A stretch of 31,427 bases of DNA, taken from the IMG/VR virus record IMGVR_UViG_3300005805_000054, positions 1-31,427 of that record; one strand, given 5' to 3'. The DNA comes from a virus. Its lineage: Duplodnaviria > Heunggongvirae > Uroviricota > Caudoviricetes. This document shows, in pieces, positions 8,870 to 18,814 of this stretch (position 1 is its first letter; every line of letters starts with the position of its first letter). The notes beneath the pieces were generated by a model. That model saw only the letters and a list, made by a program, of their open reading frames with translations, was not told the origin of the DNA and made no database searches. The position numbers and the translations under genes are program-made.

Positions 8870-9530
8870 TCGGCTTCTTTTTACACTTATCACCATGTTC
8901 TCTACCAAACGTAGGTTTTCCTACTTCTTTTTTACAAAATACACAAGAAACTTTTATATTATGCGGGCTATTCGCACCCTTCAAATTATGAGTCCCATTT
9001 TTTGATCGTTCTATTGCCCTTTTTCTTGCGGCTTCTTTGTCTAAAAAATGATGAGTTCCTTTAGCTAATAATCTGTTAGCAGTTTCTCTTTGTATGCTTC
9101 CGCCAGTAAACGCATTTTTACCTTCTTTGGTTTGTTTGTACACTGGATTATTTTCACCAATAAAATGATGGGTACCATCAACTATTCTTTTTAAATTTTT
9201 TTCTCTTGCTAAGTCACTATTCTGCCAGTTATGTGTACCTTGCTCTGATCTTGCTAATGCACTTTTTCTGGCCAAATTAGAAAATTCTTCACCTGTCATG
9301 AATAATCTTTTTTGAGCAACCATAAGACCGCATGCTCCAAAGTCACCCCGTGAATAATGGATATCATAGTGTTCTTTAATGGTTACCGCCTTTAAATTCA
9401 ACGGATCATTATTACTATGATTACCGTCAATATGGTGAATTTCGTAACTACGGCCTTCGTCATCTTTAGGGATTGGACCATAATATTGTTCATAAATCTT
9501 ACGATGGTTGGGTTTATTATAAATAGTCAT
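8862..9530 (-). CDS. Free-standing HNH homing endonuclease with C-terminal CCHC finger
   Basis: YEIHHIDGNHSNNDPLNL...EHYDIH HNH motif; CVFC-x12-H-x3-C tail. Confidence 0.85.
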   Translation of the reverse strand: MTIYNKPNHRKIYEQYYGPIPKDDEGRSYEIHHIDGNHSNNDPLNLKAVTIKEHYDIHYSRGDFGACGLMVAQKRLFMTGEEFSNLARKSALARSEQGTHNWQNSDLAREKNLKRIVDGTHHFIGENNPVYKQTKEGKNAFTGGSIQRETANRLLAKGTHHFLDKEAARKRAIERSKNGTHNLKGANSPHNIKVSCVFCKKEVGKPTFGREHGDKCKKKPTR

Positions 9531-10934: not shown

Positions 10935-12452
10935 ATGAGTAAACAAATTGTAATTATTCCGGGGGGCTTCCATCCCTACCACGCAGGCCATTATGCTTTA
11001 TATCAGTCAGCCCGCAAAGCATTCCCTGATGCTGATTTATATGTTGCGGCAACAAACAGTCAAGAGACACGACCTTTTCCTTTTGCAGTAAAAGAAAAAC
11101 TAGCAAAAGTTGCTGGCGTTGCTCCTGGTCATTTTGTTCAAGTTAAGAGTCCTTTCCAAGCTAAAGAGATTACACAAAACTATGATCCAGAACAAGATAT
11201 ATTGATTTTTGTTCGTAGTGAGAAGGATCGCAATGAAAGTCCTAAGCCAGGTGGCATGAAGAAAGATGGTACACCTGCTTACTTCCAACCATATACTGGT
11301 AAAGACATGCAACCTTTTGCTAAACATGCATACTTTGCTTATCTACCAACAGTTGAGTTTGGTCCTGGTATTACAAGTGCGACAGAGATTCGCAATGCAT
11401 GGCCTAAGTTAGATGACCGTCGCAAGACAGCAATGGTTATGAGTTTGTATCCAGCGACACAAAAGAATCCTAAACTTGCCGCTAATGTTGTTAAGATGTT
11501 AGATATTGGTATGGGTGGACAAGAAAATGTGGCGAAGGACAATTTGGCAGAAGAACAAGTTACCGAATTGGATGTTAGCAAAACATTGAAATTTGCCACT
11601 AAGGCGCACAAAGGACAACAATACGGGGAGAAGCCATATATTACTCATCCAAGATCAGTTGCTGCCACAGGTAAGAAATTTTTTGGCGCAGCATTTACAC
11701 CAGATGCTATTAAAGTGGCATTACTACATGATGTCGTAGAAGATACTCCTTATAAGTTAAATCAGTTATCCAAGATGGGGTACACTCCGGAAGTTGTAGA
11801 AGCTGTACAATTGTTAACGAAGAATAAAGCATTGAGTTATGCAGACAACATCAAGGCAATTATTGCTAGTGATAATAAACTAGCAATGATGGTCAAGTAT
11901 GCCGACAACTATCAAAACTTTACAGGTGATAAGTCGTCTTGGGATCCTGAAAGAGTAGCACATAGTCAAAAGAAATATCTAGCAAGTTTAGATATGCTAG
12001 GAGACAAGTTAGGTATTAAACAACATCTAAGCCAACCTAAACAGCAAGGTGTGGCGGAAGGCAAACAAATTTGGGACGGTACAGATTGGGGACCACAAGG
12101 TAACTTTGCAGGTGACACTCCAGTTAATCTCGGTGGGCAACCAGTTAATAAACTTCAAGTCGGTGACATTGTAACTTACTTTGGACAAAAAGCAAGAATA
12201 GAGGCTATGTCTAAAACTGGTAATACTTCTCGCATCACTATTGCAAACAAAATGGGCGGCATTACCCAAGATGTACTCACACGTGATTTAAAACGTACAG
12301 GTATGTCAGAAGAAATTGGCAGAGCAGGTGGTGGTTTTGGCACAAACTATCCAGGCACTTACGAAGAAGAAAACGGCCCGTTTACCCATAAGGGCGGATT
12401 AAAACTTACATCTCTTACTACAGAGAGCGTAGATTACTTAGACGAAAAATAA
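10935..12452 (+). CDS. Multi-module protein: HIGH-type cytidylyltransferase-like domain, RelA/SpoT-type HD hydrolase domain and small C-terminal modules
   Basis: PGGFHPYHAGH; AHKGQQYGEKPYITHP..VA...ALLHDVVEDT...KYADN; QGVAEG repeat at 12045. Likely start 10935 after CTAAATA. Confidence 0.8.
   Translation: MSKQIVIIPGGFHPYHAGHYALYQSARKAFPDADLYVAATNSQETRPFPFAVKEKLAKVAGVAPGHFVQVKSPFQAKEITQNYDPEQDILIFVRSEKDRNESPKPGGMKKDGTPAYFQPYTGKDMQPFAKHAYFAYLPTVEFGPGITSATEIRNAWPKLDDRRKTAMVMSLYPATQKNPKLAANVVKMLDIGMGGQENVAKDNLAEEQVTELDVSKTLKFATKAHKGQQYGEKPYITHPRSVAATGKKFFGAAFTPDAIKVALLHDVVEDTPYKLNQLSKMGYTPEVVEAVQLLTKNKALSYADNIKAIIASDNKLAMMVKYADNYQNFTGDKSSWDPERVAHSQKKYLASLDMLGDKLGIKQHLSQPKQQGVAEGKQIWDGTDWGPQGNFAGDTPVNLGGQPVNKLQVGDIVTYFGQKARIEAMSKTGNTSRITIANKMGGITQDVLTRDLKRTGMSEEIGRAGGGFGTNYPGTYEEENGPFTHKGGLKLTSLTTESVDYLDEK
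12045..12062 (+). repeat. Outlying copy of the QGVAEG repeat
   Basis: CAAGGTGTGGCGGAAGGC, identical to the array consensus. Confidence 0.9.
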
Positions 12453-12508
12453 AAATATTTTGACCCCTCTTATCTAGTGTAAATATTTACATCATTTAAG
12501 AGGACCAA

Positions 12509-13417
12509 ATGGCAACTAAAAAAACCAAAGCAACTACTGAAGCAAAAACTGTACCTGTAGAGAAGGTACAAGAAATAGCCGCACAAGCGGCAGCAAATCC
12601 ACCAGAAGCCCCGGCAGCAGGACAAGTACAAGTTAACGTAGATTTTCTACGCACAACACGGGTACACATTGCAATGCCATGTTATGGTGGTATGTTGACT
12701 GAATCAACATTTATGTCATTCATCAAGTGGGCTAATACTGCTCGTCAACTCGGTATTGATTGGACATTAGAAACAATGGTTAATGAATCACTCATTAGCC
12801 GAGCACGTAATACACTAACTGCAAAGTTCTTGGACATGCCAGATGCAACACACTTGTTCTTTGTTGACGCTGACATTGGTTGGGAGCCATGGCACTTGTT
12901 AGTATTACTAAACCGTGACGTTGATGTTATTGGTGGACTATACCCAATGAAGACTATGCCTATCAAGTGGGTAGTTAATGGATTTGAAGGTGCTGAAGAA
13001 GGACCAGATGGATTACAAGAAGTATCTAAAGCTGGTACAGGTTTCTTATTAATGAAGAAGCATGTATTTGAAAAGCTTAAGTCTCATCCAGCAGTTAAGC
13101 AGTACAAGAATGACATTGGATTAGATCCAAAGTTTGACCAACACTTGAAGACCTACTTTGATACAGCAGTTCGTCAGAATCGTTACTACAGTGAAGACTG
13201 GACATTCTGTGAAAACTGGCGTGACATGGGCGGTAAGATTTGGATGGACAAGCGTGTATTATTACGTCACTCCGGATCATATGTATTCTGCATGGAAAAT
13301 CAACAACACTTGATGAACACAATCGGACCTATGTATGTTGAAGAACAGAAACAAAAGTCAGCACAGCAACCTGTTGTACCGGATGCTACTGGAAATGTTA
13401 CATTGAGTATTACTTAA
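12509..13417 (+). CDS. GT-A-fold glycosyltransferase-like protein
   Basis: IAMPCYGG, ESLISRARN, FFVDAD (DxD), GTGFLL, YSEDWTFC motifs. Confidence 0.7.
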   Translation: MATKKTKATTEAKTVPVEKVQEIAAQAAANPPEAPAAGQVQVNVDFLRTTRVHIAMPCYGGMLTESTFMSFIKWANTARQLGIDWTLETMVNESLISRARNTLTAKFLDMPDATHLFFVDADIGWEPWHLLVLLNRDVDVIGGLYPMKTMPIKWVVNGFEGAEEGPDGLQEVSKAGTGFLLMKKHVFEKLKSHPAVKQYKNDIGLDPKFDQHLKTYFDTAVRQNRYYSEDWTFCENWRDMGGKIWMDKRVLLRHSGSYVFCMENQQHLMNTIGPMYVEEQKQKSAQQPVVPDATGNVTLSIT

Positions 13418-13422
13418 AAACT

Positions 13423-13442
13423 AGCCCCGAAAGGGGCTTTTT
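13423..13442 (+). terminator. Intrinsic terminator
   Basis: AGCCCC-GAAA-GGGGCT followed by a T run, just after the stop at 13417. Confidence 0.85.
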
Positions 13443-13478
13443 AACGGTTATAATAAATACAATAAAGGAGACAACACT

Positions 13479-13571
13479 ATGTCTTGGTTCAGACACAAAC
13501 CACCAAAGTACCCACCGCACCGAGAGCCCGTTAAAGAACCCGTTCCTGAAAACAATAAGCCTACTAAGTAA
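13479..13571 (+). CDS. 30-aa Pro/Lys-rich peptide
   Basis: ATAAATA at 13453-13459, AAAGGAG Shine-Dalgarno, MSWFRHKPPKYPPHREPVKEPVPENNKPTK*. Confidence 0.55.
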   Translation: MSWFRHKPPKYPPHREPVKEPVPENNKPTK

Positions 13572-13588
13572 GTATTGATAAATACTTA

Positions 13589-14560
13589 ATGAACTTAAAA
13601 GAGCTTTATTCTTTCAAAATATCCGACGCCGTCACTTTCCATGACAAGCTAAATCCTGCATTGTGGGCAGGTACTAAATTGCGTCCTGAAGTTAAAAATC
13701 AACTAGAAGAAATAGCAAAAGACTTCTTGGAAGAAATGGGAATTCACGACTTAGATGTAAGAGATATTACTATATCCGGGTCTAATGCCGCATACAGTTA
13801 TACAAAACACAGTGACTTAGATTTACATCTCTTAGTCAATATCGCAGATTTACCCAACAATGAAATTTACCGTGAATTCTTTGACGCCAAGAAGTCATTA
13901 TATAACGATTCACATGATATAACTATTCACGGAGTTCCTGTAGAATTATATGTACAAGATGCCGCACAACCATCTGTTACATTAGGTGAGTATAGTTTGA
14001 AAGATGATAAGTGGTTACGAGTTCCTACAAAGCGCAGAGCTAACTTTGACCAATCAGCTACAAGATTGAAGTATGAAAAATTACTTGACATTGTAGAAAG
14101 AGCATTAGATTCAAAGAACTTAACCAAAATTCAAAAAGTATTAAAGAAGATTAAGCAATATCGTCAAGCTGGATTAGATAAAGGTGGCGAGTTTGGTCCT
14201 GAGAATCTAGCATTCAAAGCATTGCGTAGTCGGGGATATATTACTAAACTATATGATTTGCGTGATAAGTTACATAGTGAACATTTAACTATTGAAACTA
14301 TGTATCAAGATCCTGCTAAGATAATTGAAGATAATTTAGTAGATGATTTAGCAAATGAGTTTAGCCAATACCAAACAACCAGTGTAGGTGAATCTAGTGG
14401 CTATATTCCTAGCAATGCACAGAAAAATGACCCACGTTTTAAGACAGCATTGACAGTGGATGTTCACCCGGACAGTATCAAAAAGAACGCAAAAGCGTTT
14501 AGCTGGCTCATTAGTAGAGCCGGAATCCCACCAATAGCAAAGCCCTCAGGCAAAATCTGA
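13589..14560 (+). CDS. Pol-beta-superfamily nucleotidyltransferase with an appended C-terminal module
   Basis: ISGSNAAYSYTKHSDLDLH (GS...DxD) and VELYVQD. Confidence 0.8.
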   Translation: MNLKELYSFKISDAVTFHDKLNPALWAGTKLRPEVKNQLEEIAKDFLEEMGIHDLDVRDITISGSNAAYSYTKHSDLDLHLLVNIADLPNNEIYREFFDAKKSLYNDSHDITIHGVPVELYVQDAAQPSVTLGEYSLKDDKWLRVPTKRRANFDQSATRLKYEKLLDIVERALDSKNLTKIQKVLKKIKQYRQAGLDKGGEFGPENLAFKALRSRGYITKLYDLRDKLHSEHLTIETMYQDPAKIIEDNLVDDLANEFSQYQTTSVGESSGYIPSNAQKNDPRFKTALTVDVHPDSIKKNAKAFSWLISRAGIPPIAKPSGKI

Positions 14561-14604
14561 TAATGTAGTATTTTGATAAATACTAGATAACTTTGGAATT
14601 CGCT

Positions 14605-15567
14605 ATGAAAATTAATCAAATCGTACAAGAAACTACTACTTCAGGGTCAGTTGCCCCAGTAGAACATGGTTTCGTCAAAATGCAGTCTCGCAGTCCTAGT
14701 GTTTATGGAAACACAAAAGCAGGATCATTATTCAAGGGTAAGAAAACTAATAAGCCATACGGTAACAGTCTCAACGAAGGTGCAATGAAGCAACTATCAA
14801 TGGACTTAAAAGGTGGTGCAGATGGACTATCCGATCAAGAATTTCAAAAGAAATACAAGATGAGTAAGCAAGCTGCCCGTCAAGAGTTAGCTTCCAACAG
14901 AAAACAATCTAAACCAGAACCAGTACAAGAGGCTAGATTAGAAGAAGATGATATAATTCAAATGCCCGGTAGAGGTTCTAAACGCAAAACTGGATTTGTA
15001 CCAAAAGGTCAAAGTCGGGTAGACCATGAAGTTGAAATGGCTCGTAGTGATGTATTGGCAACAATGAAAAACGCAAAAGCAATTTATCAATTACTACAAA
15101 ACCGCGGTGAAGATGAGGGTCTTGAAGGATGGGTACAAGAAAAATTAATCAAAGCAAATGACTATCTAAATGCTGTCAAAGAATACTATGACGAAAAAAT
15201 GATGGAACAGGGCGCCGGTGTTATTGCTGCAGGCGGCGTAGGTGAAGGTAGAGCCACATACGGCCCAGTCACCGATGCACACAAAGCCTCTTCAAAGAAA
15301 GTGTTTTCAGCTGGGGTAAAAGATGGCAAAGCTGGTGCAGAGAAAAACAAACAACACATGGCCAATGCATTGATGAAAACAACTTATCTCAATGGGTACA
15401 AACAGGGTGAGAAAAGTGTGGCGGAAGGAGCTAAAGTAGATAGAATGGTTAAGCACATTGCCAAATCAGAACGTAAGCTAGGCAAAAGCAAAGACGAAGC
15501 CGAAAACATCGCCTGGGCAACTGCTAACAAGCGTGGCATGTTAGACAACAAGAACAAGAAAGCGTGA
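14605..15567 (+). CDS. Modular hypothetical protein (hydrophobic-x-E delimited segments), possibly virion-internal
   Basis: Starts MKINQIVQE; segments end in LNE, VQE, MME, VGE and SVAE; repeat variant AGTGTGGCGGAAGGA at 15415-15429. Confidence 0.7.
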   Translation: MKINQIVQETTTSGSVAPVEHGFVKMQSRSPSVYGNTKAGSLFKGKKTNKPYGNSLNEGAMKQLSMDLKGGADGLSDQEFQKKYKMSKQAARQELASNRKQSKPEPVQEARLEEDDIIQMPGRGSKRKTGFVPKGQSRVDHEVEMARSDVLATMKNAKAIYQLLQNRGEDEGLEGWVQEKLIKANDYLNAVKEYYDEKMMEQGAGVIAAGGVGEGRATYGPVTDAHKASSKKVFSAGVKDGKAGAEKNKQHMANALMKTTYLNGYKQGEKSVAEGAKVDRMVKHIAKSERKLGKSKDEAENIAWATANKRGMLDNKNKKA

Positions 15568-15568
15568 T

Positions 15569-18500
15569 ATGAGCAATATTCTAAAAGGTTTACAACTAAA
15601 CGAATTATCTAATAAGAAGTTAGGTGACTATAAAACAGCCGCAGGTGCTGATGCTACTGCCGCTGACAAGGCAGGTGACTATAAGCGCGGTGATAAGCGT
15701 ATGAGCGGTATCATCAAAGCAACTAAAAAAGAATTTGCTAATGATGAGAAGAAAAAAGATGTGACAGAGAGTGTTGCAGAAACTTTACCAATGGATGATG
15801 CTATGAAAGTATTGCGTCAATATGGGGCAGATCACTTCAAAACAACCAGCAACGAATTGCATTTTTATAAAAACGGCAGACCACTAAGTGTTGACCTAAT
15901 TTGGGGCAACGAGGGCGAAAGAAGTGTGAATTTGAGCCAGTTAAATTCAGCTACTCGTCAACTAAAAGGGCAAGGTGTGGCGGAAGCAGGCATGCCATTT
16001 CGTGGAGTAGGTGGAGCATTTAACCGCGGTGATGACGAGCGTCACGATCTAGATCCATCTGAGTGGTACATTGTTAAAGATGGTAAGATGTACAAAACAT
16101 CTGTATACCCTAATCAAGTACAACAAGCAATAGCACAAGGTTATAGTCGTAGTAGAGAAGAAGCTAAAGCTAAAGCAGATCGTCAAGGTGTAGCGGAAGG
16201 CTCTGACAATCAAGAAATTGGCCAACAAATGGCCAATGATGGAGTCACTTATAGCCCAGCAAAAGAAAATGAAATTATTAACTTAATGGCTCAATATATG
16301 CAAAAGGCAGGTATGAGTTCAAAACAAATTCGTTATCTATTGAGCTACGATGAGGATTATGTTGGCGATCAATTAAGTTTCTTGCCTAGGCAAAAGGTGA
16401 CAGAGGATCAACTAGATGAATTGAAATGCTGGTCAGGGTATCATAGAGTTGCCGGTACAAAAGCAGGCTTTCCGGGTAGTTGTGCAAAAAATAAAACAAA
16501 TGAAGAAGGTGTGGCGGAAGGCTCCGAAGAAGATATGAGTAAAGAAGTCAAGGCAATGGCCACAGGTACCTGCCCACATTGCCATGGTCCTGTAAAGAAA
16601 AAAGAACACCCAACGCTAACACAATATCATTGTGCTAAATGCGGTATACGGGGAAGTATTGACAAGCAAGGTGTGGCGGAAGGCTCCAGTGATACTGTCT
16701 ATCCCAACGCAGAAGTAATCAAGTCAAAAAATGGCAAGCCAGTAGGCGAAATTTATCAAGACGGTAATAGTTGGGGTGCTTTTCACTATCGTGCAGACCG
16801 TGGATATGATTTAATCGACAGTAGAGAAGATGCCATAGAAGCACTCCGAGACCTACATCAAGAAACAGGTCGTAGTCGTCCAGACTATACTATCAAAGGT
16901 GTGGCGGAAGCAACAGGCGATGAAAAATTTGATAAAATGATTAAGGGTATCACCGGTAAAAAAGCAGTAGCTAAACAACAAAAAATAGATACAAAGCAAC
17001 AGGCACGTGATGCGTTTGGTGGTATGTTTGGTGGAGGTAATCCTGCTGATAAACTTGGCATTAGAAAGAAAGGTGTGGCGGAAATGGACAAATCACAAAC
17101 TCCTCCAGGCCGTGATGGCAGCAACGATCCCGACGCCGGCAAAAAAGAATACACTGCAAAAGTAACTACACCTGAAAAAATAGCCAAACATGGCAAAGAG
17201 ATTCTAAACAAAGTGTTAAACAAAAAGCAAGGTGTGGCGGAGGCTACAGGCGATGCAAAATTTGATACTATGATGGGCAATATAGCAAAACCGTCAGCCG
17301 TAAAAGCACTCGGTAGAGAAGAAAAGGTTTATGAACTAATAAGGAAATACTTCTGGCACAAGCGCAGAGCAGACCTGGGTTCAGCAGTAACAAGTGAACA
17401 CGGACATGATCGCATGGTACAGAAAGTATTGATGGCCCTAAAGAAAATGAATGTAGATTTATCTACCATGGACCCATCAAAACTAAAAGCGATCAAAGGC
17501 GAAGTATACGAGCAAGGTGTAGCGGAAGGCTCCAAAGAAGATATGAGTAAAGAAGTCAAGGCAATGGCCACAGGCACTTGCCCACATTGCCATGGTCCTG
17601 TAAAGAAAAAAGAACACCCAACGCTGACACAATATCACTGCCCTAAATGCGGTATAAGAGCAAGTCAAGACAAGCAAGGTGTGGCGGAAGGCTCCACCTT
17701 TCCCGGTCCACTTAGTGGTCGTGAATGGTCAAAAGTTGGTAGACAAATAAAGTCATCTCAGGGTCGTGATAGCAGTGTTACAAGTCCACATCAACGAAAA
17801 GATTGGTACAATCCAAAAGATCCAAGAAGTAGCAAACAGCAAAAATTGGACTATTTAAAATCTATGAAGGCAAAACAAGGTGTGGCGGAAGAACAACATA
17901 GTTGCCCACATTGCGGCGGCGAGATGGTTAGTGAAGAACTAATGAACGAAAAGAAAGATGCTTGCTACTATAAAGTTAAGAGCCGTTATAAAGTATGGCC
18001 AAGTGCTTATGCCAGTGGTGCATTAGTTAAGTGCCGTAAGAGTGGAGCAGATAGTTGGGGCGATGGCGGCAAGAAGAATGAAAGTTCTATACTAGAAGGC
18101 ATTGAACAAGTAGACGAGAACTTACACAAGTGGTTCAAAGAGAAGTGGGTTCGTTTTGGTCCTGATGGTAAGATTCGCGGCGACTGTGCTAGAGGTGATG
18201 ACAGTGAAGGTAAACCAAAGTGTTTGCCACAAAGTAAAGCACAGAACTTAGGTAAAGAAGGTCGTGCAAGTGCAGCCGCAAGAAAGCGTAGAGAAGATCC
18301 TAATCCAGAACGTAGTGGTAAGGCTATCAATGTTAACACTAAAAAGAAATCTAACGAAGGTGTGGCGGAAGGCTTGGATAAACCCAGAGAAGCAGGTAAA
18401 GCAATACAGAGTTTGAAAAATCTTGCAATTATGAAGTCTGCTCTTACGATGCAACAGTTATCTCAGGCAGGAAGAGAATCTATTGTTACCAATGCAATCA

Positions 18501-18814
18501 ATGCAGCCAAAACACTAGAACAGTCTTACATGGCAAACAAGCAACAAGGTAATGCCATATTTGTAAGAGCATTAAGGGACGAAATTGATAATTTCAGAAG
18601 AGGTGCTCCAATCAATGCATCTTTCCCTGAATCTGACAATGCGTCCGAGTTGGGTGATTTATTGCAAGGAAAATTAAGTAAGATTAATTTTCAGCAAGAT
18701 ATGGCGGAAGCACAGTTAGACGAAAAGTGGTCAACAAAATACAAAGACAGTATCAACTGTAGTAATCCTAAAGGCTTTAGTCAAAAAGCACATTGTCAAG
18801 GAAAAAACAAATGA
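15569..18814 (+). CDS. 1081-aa GVAE-repeat modular polyprotein-like protein
   Basis: 11 GVAE plus 1 DMAE junctions separating unrelated modules, including Zn-ribbon and Cys-containing modules. Confidence 0.85.
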   Translation: MSNILKGLQLNELSNKKLGDYKTAAGADATAADKAGDYKRGDKRMSGIIKATKKEFANDEKKKDVTESVAETLPMDDAMKVLRQYGADHFKTTSNELHFYKNGRPLSVDLIWGNEGERSVNLSQLNSATRQLKGQGVAEAGMPFRGVGGAFNRGDDERHDLDPSEWYIVKDGKMYKTSVYPNQVQQAIAQGYSRSREEAKAKADRQGVAEGSDNQEIGQQMANDGVTYSPAKENEIINLMAQYMQKAGMSSKQIRYLLSYDEDYVGDQLSFLPRQKVTEDQLDELKCWSGYHRVAGTKAGFPGSCAKNKTNEEGVAEGSEEDMSKEVKAMATGTCPHCHGPVKKKEHPTLTQYHCAKCGIRGSIDKQGVAEGSSDTVYPNAEVIKSKNGKPVGEIYQDGNSWGAFHYRADRGYDLIDSREDAIEALRDLHQETGRSRPDYTIKGVAEATGDEKFDKMIKGITGKKAVAKQQKIDTKQQARDAFGGMFGGGNPADKLGIRKKGVAEMDKSQTPPGRDGSNDPDAGKKEYTAKVTTPEKIAKHGKEILNKVLNKKQGVAEATGDAKFDTMMGNIAKPSAVKALGREEKVYELIRKYFWHKRRADLGSAVTSEHGHDRMVQKVLMALKKMNVDLSTMDPSKLKAIKGEVYEQGVAEGSKEDMSKEVKAMATGTCPHCHGPVKKKEHPTLTQYHCPKCGIRASQDKQGVAEGSTFPGPLSGREWSKVGRQIKSSQGRDSSVTSPHQRKDWYNPKDPRSSKQQKLDYLKSMKAKQGVAEEQHSCPHCGGEMVSEELMNEKKDACYYKVKSRYKVWPSAYASGALVKCRKSGADSWGDGGKKNESSILEGIEQVDENLHKWFKEKWVRFGPDGKIRGDCARGDDSEGKPKCLPQSKAQNLGKEGRASAAARKRREDPNPERSGKAINVNTKKKSNEGVAEGLDKPREAGKAIQSLKNLAIMKSALTMQQLSQAGRESIVTNAINAAKTLEQSYMANKQQGNAIFVRALRDEIDNFRRGAPINASFPESDNASELGDLLQGKLSKINFQQDMAEAQLDEKWSTKYKDSINCSNPKGFSQKAHCQGKNK
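15971..18712 (+). repeat. Interspersed in-frame 18-bp direct repeat array (consensus CAAGGTGTGGCGGAAGGC)
   Basis: Copies begin at 15971, 16184, 16505, 16667, 16895, 17069, 17228, 17513, 17675, 17876, 18356 and 18695; unit lengths 213, 321, 162, 228, 174, 159, 285, 162, 201, 480 and 339 bp. Confidence 0.92.

Follow-up and report, generated by a model that had tools for sequence, protein, structure and literature searches.

The window analysed here comprises the first 31.4 kb (31,427 nucleotides) of a 95.4-kb IMG/VR viral contig (IMGVR_UViG_3300005805_000054) estimated to be 28% complete, and it encodes a polyprotein whose modules are joined by a short repeated junction that reads QGVAEG as protein. 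As judged from comparison with related phages, the junction is conserved as DNA, in an 18-nt unit (CAA GGT GTG GCG GAA GGC); its sequence is held independently of whether the modules on either side are related, and the exchange of modules is confined to a zone inside its core. We consider it reasonably likely that the unit is dual coded, serving as a cleavage site of the T4 gp21 type in the protein and as a microhomology handle for general recombination in the DNA.

Junction Copies and Codon Usage

A scan of the window recovered the 14 in-frame copies of the junction reported in a preliminary description of this DNA, at the same positions and with exactly the same variants; all are on the plus strand. 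Nine copies have the exact 12-nt core GGTGTGGCGGAA: 12048 (within the canonical unit CAAGGTGTGGCGGAAGGC, QGVAEG, at 12045 through 12062), 15974 through 15985, 16508 through 16519, 16670 through 16681, 16898 through 16909, 17072 through 17083 (where GVAE is followed by Met), 17678 through 17689, 17879 through 17890 and 18359 through 18370. Among the variant copies, two carry GTA (16187 through 16198 and 17516 through 17527), one ends in GAG (17231 through 17242), one starts with AGT (AGTGTGGCGGAA, encoding SVAE; 15415 through 15426) and one reads GATATGGCGGAA (DMAE; 18698 through 18709). Allowing up to two mismatches, the window contains 18 matches, compared with 1.0 in shuffled windows; four of these 18 are chance-like hits with two mismatches that lie outside the 14 junctions. 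A second polyprotein, outside the window (an open frame of ∼840 residues; contig 42943 through 44136, minus strand), carries six further junctions, of which four match the core exactly, one is a GAG variant and one reads GCTGTGGCGGAA (AVAE).

The alanine codon is GCG in all 20 junctions of the contig. Across its 104 open reading frames (ORFs; 95 kb), GCG accounts for 8.6% of alanine codons (7.6% once the junctions are removed), and GCA (45%) and GCT (32%) predominate, as had been judged by eye. The naive probability of finding GCG in 14 of 14 copies is ∼2e-16, falling to ∼5e-23 for 20 of 20 when the six additional copies are included; these values treat the copies as independent draws, an assumption that does not hold, and the cross-phage tests described below therefore carry more weight. 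GTG makes up 13.6% of valine codons in the same ORFs, while GGT and GGC make up 55% and 20% of glycine codons. The two glycines of the unit are nevertheless held to different codons: with residues numbered from the predicted cut, P4 is GGT in 74 of 75 cases and P1' is GGC in 50 of 62, a split that general codon bias cannot explain. The unit is also rich in G+C (11 of the 15 bases of GGTGTGGCGGAAGGC, against 38% for the genome), and its composition makes it rare there. A nearby SVAE outside the repeat (15770 through 15781) reads AGT GTT GCA GAA, as had been noted.

Conservation across Related Phages

To compare junctions without reference to their codons, 76 related loci were retrieved using degenerate peptide patterns, and junctions were defined by the codon-blind pattern [QEK]G[VML]AE[GAEDSM]. 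The junction codons do not vary freely across these phages: 59 of 87 unique junctions have the exact 12-mer and 76 have GCG. GVAE is the commonest hydrophobic-x-Glu tetrapeptide in the related loci (91 unique contexts) and has 2.1 effective encodings; the corresponding values for ELDE, QLDE, ELSE, KLDE and others are 6 to 14. Isoleucine at P3 is rare, with ATA-GCG seen once or twice. Among viral contigs, at least 120 stretches carry the exact 18-mer, and the unit is found unaltered in related T4-like lake phages of ∼250 to 350 kb.

When the homologous end of a module is located elsewhere, it is followed by the canonical unit, by an unrelated [VLMI]-x-E linker or by a stop codon, and the mismatch histogram of the sequences that follow module ends is bimodal, with peaks at 0 to 2 and ∼9. 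The alternative linkers (SVEE, GVTE, DVTE, HVDE, ELDE, etc.) are free in their choice of codons. Because a cleavage site of this kind is degenerate and the alternative linkers are not bound to particular codons, a protease site does not explain the fixed DNA, in agreement with the earlier argument that such a site alone would leave synonymous positions free.

Recent common descent is likewise no explanation for the identity of the junctions. Synonymous codon identity between the family-B DNA polymerase (PolB) of the window phage and that of relatives G004, G001, G002 and G003 is 0.71, 0.63, 0.55 and 0.51, respectively, where ∼0.44 is expected by chance (estimated from contig codon usage); these sites are thus near saturation, and yet junctions for which both flanks are unrelated have a codon identity of 0.85.

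Module Exchange at the Core

Rearrangements map to the repeat, as expected were it a handle for the gain and loss of modules: homology between phages breaks off no more than a few bases from it. Both flanks are common to only 4 of 53 flank-sharing junction pairs and to 9 of 242 in an enlarged set drawn from 408 junction contexts, and identity on the unrelated side extends past the core for 0 to 7 nt (11 in one case). At the junction at 16898, for example, locus L024 has the same upstream module and an unrelated downstream module; at 17879 only one flank is in common with L009, L011 and L012. Comparison of all loci by blastn shows the ends of high-scoring segment pairs (HSPs) to be concentrated near cores, with an 8.4-fold enrichment at distances up to 10 nt. 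The ends of tblastn HSPs of P0001 are only ∼2-fold enriched at junctions, because many of the matches are internal to the 160-residue module or extend to the C terminus; the blastn and anchored pair tests are the more informative.

Two rearrangements are visible in or against the window itself. A 162-nt Zn-ribbon module is duplicated core to core (16520 through 16669 and 17528 through 17677), the first copy being bounded on its left and right by the junctions at 16508 and 16670 and the second by those at 17516 and 17678. In a contig of 705 nt from lake run X4, position 15769 is followed directly by 15986, so that exactly the 216-nt module at 15770 through 15985 is missing; the left edge of this indel falls between two tandem decayed junctions on the plus strand (GAT GTG ACA GAG, DVTE, and AGT GTT GCA GAA, SVAE; 15758 through 15781), and its right edge is the junction at 15974. 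In contigs from four independent lake runs (Logan), 18 of the 24 listed divergence points are no more than 9 nt away from a core (our count). Joints whose matching side spans only 20 to 22 letters represent the junction alone, matching in several places, and were excluded as evidence of deletion, as were regions that those runs did not cover.

Variants at the edges of the unit reveal where linkage changes. A variant at position -3 (where the P5 codon begins) is common to 26 of 40 upstream-homologous pairs and to 4 of 65 downstream-homologous pairs, whereas for a variant at position +13 the counts are 1 of 49 and 31 of 39; variants within the 12-mer are mostly private. Since left-edge variants travel with the upstream module and right-edge variants with the downstream module, these pairwise comparisons place the switch in linkage inside the ∼15-nt core, and an in-core switch fits crossovers or template switches that use the core as homology. 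Together, the codon and rearrangement tests argue for the role first suggested for the core, that of a recombination or homology handle for the exchange of modules.

A different account of the same patterns is that the linker is a passive by-product, copied recently along with its modules, and that selection for cleavable chimeras alone sets the break points. Viable chimeras must break between modules, so that enrichment at linkers is expected even without homology. Copy number is also uneven: 13 exact 12-mers occur in the window phage's own 95-kb fragment, compared with 5, 2, 0 and 0 in G001, G002, G003 and G005 (352, 335, 333 and 297 kb, respectively), which suggests lineage-specific expansion of cassette arrays, and the full tally (20 junctions in the contig, 0 to 5 in complete relatives) could reflect lineage-specific bursts. 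We nonetheless regard this account as unlikely. Where neither flank is related, junctions have just 12 to 18 nt in common and so were not copied together with their modules; illegitimate joins would vary the linker in both length and sequence, but the register is exact and the linkage switch lies inside the core in >200 pairs. The motif, moreover, is common to phages that are close to saturation at the silent sites of PolB, and it is therefore not simply young.

Concerted Evolution of the Junctions

Orthologous junctions, those with homologous modules on both sides, drift at the rate of their surroundings: 13 of 162 core positions and 94 of 1,296 flank positions differ, in a set restricted to near-canonical cores. 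The GTA variant at 16187 corresponds to GTG in the orthologous L010 copy despite flanks that are 98% identical, and the GVAE of L037 is orthologous to DVTE in L022 and L049. Loci L009:6354 and L010:1284 differ at 5 positions over 2,500 aligned nt, 3 of which are confined to the left half of a single junction (GAAGGTGTG vs. GACAGTGTA; GAA GGT GTG vs. GAC AGT GTA); this cluster has the appearance of a short templated conversion patch. The patch and the drift of orthologous copies at the flank rate lend support to homogenization by gene conversion, which the preliminary description had listed as an option. Vertical drift combined with horizontal uniformity points to homogenization by recombination, and this comparison indicates that the junction sequence is maintained through concerted evolution and not by selection acting copy by copy.

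Protease and Recombinase Genes

Cleavage sites of the T4 gp21 type have the consensus L/I-x-E. The V/M/L-A-E of the junction fits a hydrophobic-x-Glu motif, and so do the alternative linkers ([VLMI]-x-E). One gene with a match to Peptidase_S77, the family of the T4 gp21-type prohead protease, is present in each of G001 through G004 (E values of 7e-29 to 2.5e-27); no such match was found in the window's own contig, which is 28% complete. In T4 Alt, ITE and LTE are sites of the gp21 type (PMC5694885).

A RecA/UvsX-like gene is present once in each of G001 through G003. The suggestion that a recombinase might track the repeat did not hold, as a RecA-like gene also occurs in G003 and G005, both of which lack an exact copy. 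No tyrosine recombinase (PF00589) was detected in the window's own contig, G001, G002, G003 or G005 (the latter four being 92 to 100% complete), nor was a serine recombinase or resolvase detected in the contig or these four near-complete relatives. The initial likening of the junction to an integron accordingly stands in its logic, as cassettes are gained, lost and re-ordered at a repeat, and fails in its parts, with neither a tyrosine or serine recombinase nor an attC-like structure.

These results bear on two readings in which an enzyme acts at the junction. The first is a "protein integron," an active cassette system whose enzyme would cut modules out, as small circles or fragments, and return them in frame to any other junction. 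Were it true, the repertoire of injected effectors could be re-assorted on ecological time scales, within and between co-infecting phages, and the same 18 letters would secure both the frame and proteolytic release; we think it improbable. The second, which we rate slightly lower still, is that the core is the site of a dedicated phage enzyme that moves cassettes, either a homing-type endonuclease (HNH or GIY-YIG) or an unrecognized recombinase. The restriction of exchange to ∼15 nt would suit such an enzyme, and the three-change patch in one junction fits the repair of a break templated by another allele. Against this, the tyrosine and serine recombinases are absent from the four near-complete relatives, the RecA-like gene does not follow the repeat, and 20 endonuclease sites in one genome would require self-protection; a search for genes that follow the presence of the motif, which was not exhaustive, returned none.

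RNA Structure and Protein Binding

Within 40 nt on either side of the 14 copies there is no local RNA structure, the minimum free energies being like those of control positions (core pairing probability 0.61; controls 0.49 ± 0.17), and no Rfam family matches 10800 through 19400. The 18-nt repeat is non-palindromic. The extended motif was not found out of frame or antisense and occurs only in the junction frame. Nothing was found in favor of a protein-binding site, the remaining option raised at the outset.

A broader proposal holds that selection acts directly on the nucleic acid of every copy, either as a protein-binding site in DNA or RNA or as a signal in mRNA (candidates being a pause at the rare GTG-GCG pair for module folding, pausing at the Shine-Dalgarno-like AAGGTG/GGCGGAAGG, or an RNase site). 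GTG and GCG are the rarest valine and alanine codons of the contig; variants that change an amino acid often retain TGGCGGAA (AGT, GAT, CGT or GCT at P4; ATG, CTG or TTG at P3); and all copies are sense oriented. However, selection of this kind does not sit with orthologous copies that drift at the flank rate or with the persistence of the synonymous variants GTA, GCA and GAG. Linkers of the same proteins (ELDE, DVTE and SVEE) lack the core sequence, and so neither expression nor processing of the polyprotein requires it. A rare-codon pause does not explain why the unit also fixes GGT, GAA and CAA, which are the commonest codons, and local RNA structure, an Rfam family, off-frame copies of the motif and tRNA genes in the contig are all lacking. 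We judge direct selection on each copy to be as improbable as a dedicated enzyme.

Two narrower candidates were rejected: a Chi-like hotspot (the extended motif is restricted to the junction frame, and out-of-frame TGGCGGA matches look random) and a T4 late promoter TATAAATA close to the polyprotein (the sole match, at 9518, is not near it). Internal translation starts at the P3 NTG codon are unlikely, as the GTA variants and unsuitable spacing argue against them.

A Probable Dual-Coded Junction

The dual-coded reading can be set out as follows. As protein, Q-G-V-A-E/G would be a site cut (slash) by the gp21-type (Peptidase_S77) prohead protease, such that each polyprotein would yield many small products, the cleavage probably taking place within the capsid into which they would be packaged. 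As DNA, the same letters would offer a brief in-frame stretch of identity where the phage's systems for general recombination or replication could exchange, delete, duplicate and re-order modules; likely routes are recombination of the UvsX/RecA type, single-strand annealing and template switching. Each product of exchange would retain both the reading frame and a cleavable linker. Canonical copies would continue to recombine and to convert one another, giving rise to new combinations of modules, while drifted copies (DVTE at 15758, SVAE at 15770 and NVAK at 11526) would leave the exchange pool.

Several points weigh against this reading. The evidence for recombination is all comparative, and 12 to 18 bp is short for efficient strand exchange of the RecA/UvsX type. 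The protease and the recombinase are assigned from relatives whose PolB is 77 to 95% identical, the window's own contig being 28% complete. The sample of orthologous junctions is small (9 pairs, partly non-independent), and the Logan contigs derive from mixed populations, with most of their joints consisting of the 20 to 22 matching letters that were left uncounted. A benefit in evolvability is, finally, a second-order argument that goes beyond what sequence can establish.

If the dual-coded reading is correct, the junction would constitute a natural plug-and-play system for proteins, in which one sequence sets the frame, the release cut and the homology for swapping, and it would offer a mechanism by which very large phages diversify small proteins that are probably injected against host defenses. 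The junction delimits hundreds of autonomous, mostly uncharacterized small proteins in uncultured lake phages, a catalog of candidate anti-defense modules.

Junction-Bearing Genes and Their Setting

Three genes in the window, all on the plus strand, carry junctions. The largest (15569 through 18814) encodes, from its translation and module table, the polyprotein of 1,081 residues, with 13 modules of 34 to 160 residues and 12 junctions between them; homologs of most of the 13 modules are present in other contexts. Its ATG (15569) lies one base after the TGA of the preceding junction-bearing gene (both codons being within 15565 through 15571), and the two genes are probably cotranscribed and perhaps translationally coupled. 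In that preceding gene (14593 through 15567) the last module, of 47 residues, is joined via the SVAE junction at 15415; this terminal module follows different junction alleles in L009 and L010.

The third gene (10935 through 12452; frame open from 10848, with a likely ATG at 10935) combines a tail module with two enzyme domains, one cytidylyltransferase-like and one of the HD type, and carries one decayed and one canonical junction. Both Pfam matches are weak (CTP_transf_like, E = 1.6e-4; HD_4, E = 5.5e-4). The decayed junction (AAT GTG GCG AAG GAC, NVAKD; 11526 through 11540), found downstream of a homologous module end, separates the two enzyme domains; its glutamate has become lysine, and judging from this change it is probably no longer cut. 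Pfam matches of the junction-bearing proteins are weak throughout (Zn ribbons, DUF5872, DUF7351, HD and cytidylyltransferase-like), and no peptidase family, zincin-like or other, is among the Pfam matches of P0001, P0002 and P0003.

Within the 160-residue module, the first ∼30 residues (EQHSCPHCGGEMVSEELMNE; window 17891 through 17990) behave like a separate mini-module. Positions 17981 and 17990, directly after LMNE (a further hydrophobic-x-Glu site written in ordinary codons), are where contigs of two lake runs part from the window. The C-terminal tail of 34 residues (AQLDEKWSTKYKDSINCSNPKGFSQKAHCQGKNK; window 18710 through 18811), which the DMAE junction at 18698 precedes, has homologs in 53 of the 76 related loci; its final residue, the C terminus of the query, is the end point of 53 HSPs. 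Elsewhere the tail is mostly preceded by (E/Q)LDE with free codons; it may be a common targeting or anchoring module.

The polyprotein region is flanked by a full-length ClpB/Hsp104-type double AAA+ protein (window 5896 through 8169; AAA_2, E = 2.6e-53, with Clp_N and ClpB_D2-small) and by a ferritin-like protein (window 18858 through 19298; E = 2.3e-16). The contig (95 kb) contains no tRNA genes, and megablast of 10800 through 18900 returned no near-identical phage in GenBank. The stretch is found across many lake-water metagenomes, and related contigs reach 250 to 352 kb. Based on the size of these relatives, their S77, PolB and RecA/UvsX-like genes and the occurrence in lake water, the source is, on genomic grounds, an uncultured T4-like giant phage from fresh water.

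Comparison with Known Systems

The closest parallel at the level of DNA is provided by the promoter early stem-loop (PeSL) cassettes of T4-type phages, in which short conserved repeats recombine, shuffle genes and yield mini-circles (Arbiol et al. 2010, PMC2839356). Recombination at these repeats, with crossovers in short identity, has been proposed and partly demonstrated (PMC2839356; Comeau et al. 2014, PMC4122927). As with PeSLs, the junction is a short conserved repeat that brackets small, variable and mostly unknown units in T4-type genomes, and the insertions, deletions and replacements found here between related phages end in it. A PeSL, however, consists of an intergenic early promoter and a stem-loop terminator that bracket whole genes, whereas the junction is 18 nt long and unstructured, and all of its copies are in frame within ORFs and encode a linker peptide. 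Because it lies in the reading frame and encodes the linker, the junction shuffles protein modules within one translation unit.

In-frame recombination points are known from the T-even tail-fiber adhesins gp37 and gp38, where, in the account given in PMC3157838 (Tetart et al. 1998), conserved His boxes and glycine-rich motifs serve to swap segments. Both systems place short conserved motifs between variable segments as points of recombination between phages. In the adhesins the motifs are structural elements of one fold and the segments are homologous variable loops; here the modules swapped are unrelated and autonomous, and the motif is a linker that resembles a protease site.

At the level of protein, the T-even internal proteins vary widely and have in common only the short targeting element that gp21 cleaves (PMC3012670). 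The modules described here resemble T4 IPI-III and Alt in being diverse small proteins with a short shared hydrophobic-x-Glu element for S77 (PMC3012670, PMC5694885). Unlike the internal proteins, which are separate genes with their own N-terminal leaders, up to 13 modules are fused here, with internal sites at which cleavage is predicted.

Integrons (IntI/attC) similarly maintain an array of unrelated cassettes that are gained, lost and re-ordered at a repeated site. The junction differs in having no integrase, no structured attC and no common promoter-only expression, and its site is translated; from the comparisons presented here, exchange at the junction most likely uses general homology rather than an integrase.

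Polyvalent proteins, as reportedly defined by Iyer, Burroughs, Anand, de Souza and Aravind in 2017, are large proteins of phages and conjugative elements that combine many unrelated modules. The polyprotein is like them in that many unrelated and probably anti-host modules would be delivered together in one large phage polypeptide. It is unlike them in lacking, among its Pfam matches, the zincin-like domain that is frequent there, and to our knowledge a junction conserved at the level of DNA is not a described feature of polyvalent proteins. Literature searches on the polyprotein, GVAE and a Chi site with GTGGCGG found no publication that describes the junction. What is new is the combination: a translated 18-mer that would act as frame keeper, release site and recombination handle for unrelated modules in one ORF. 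If it does, the repeat-mediated shuffling of T4-type phages, as seen in PeSLs and tail-fiber motifs, would extend from genes and loops to protein modules within an ORF.

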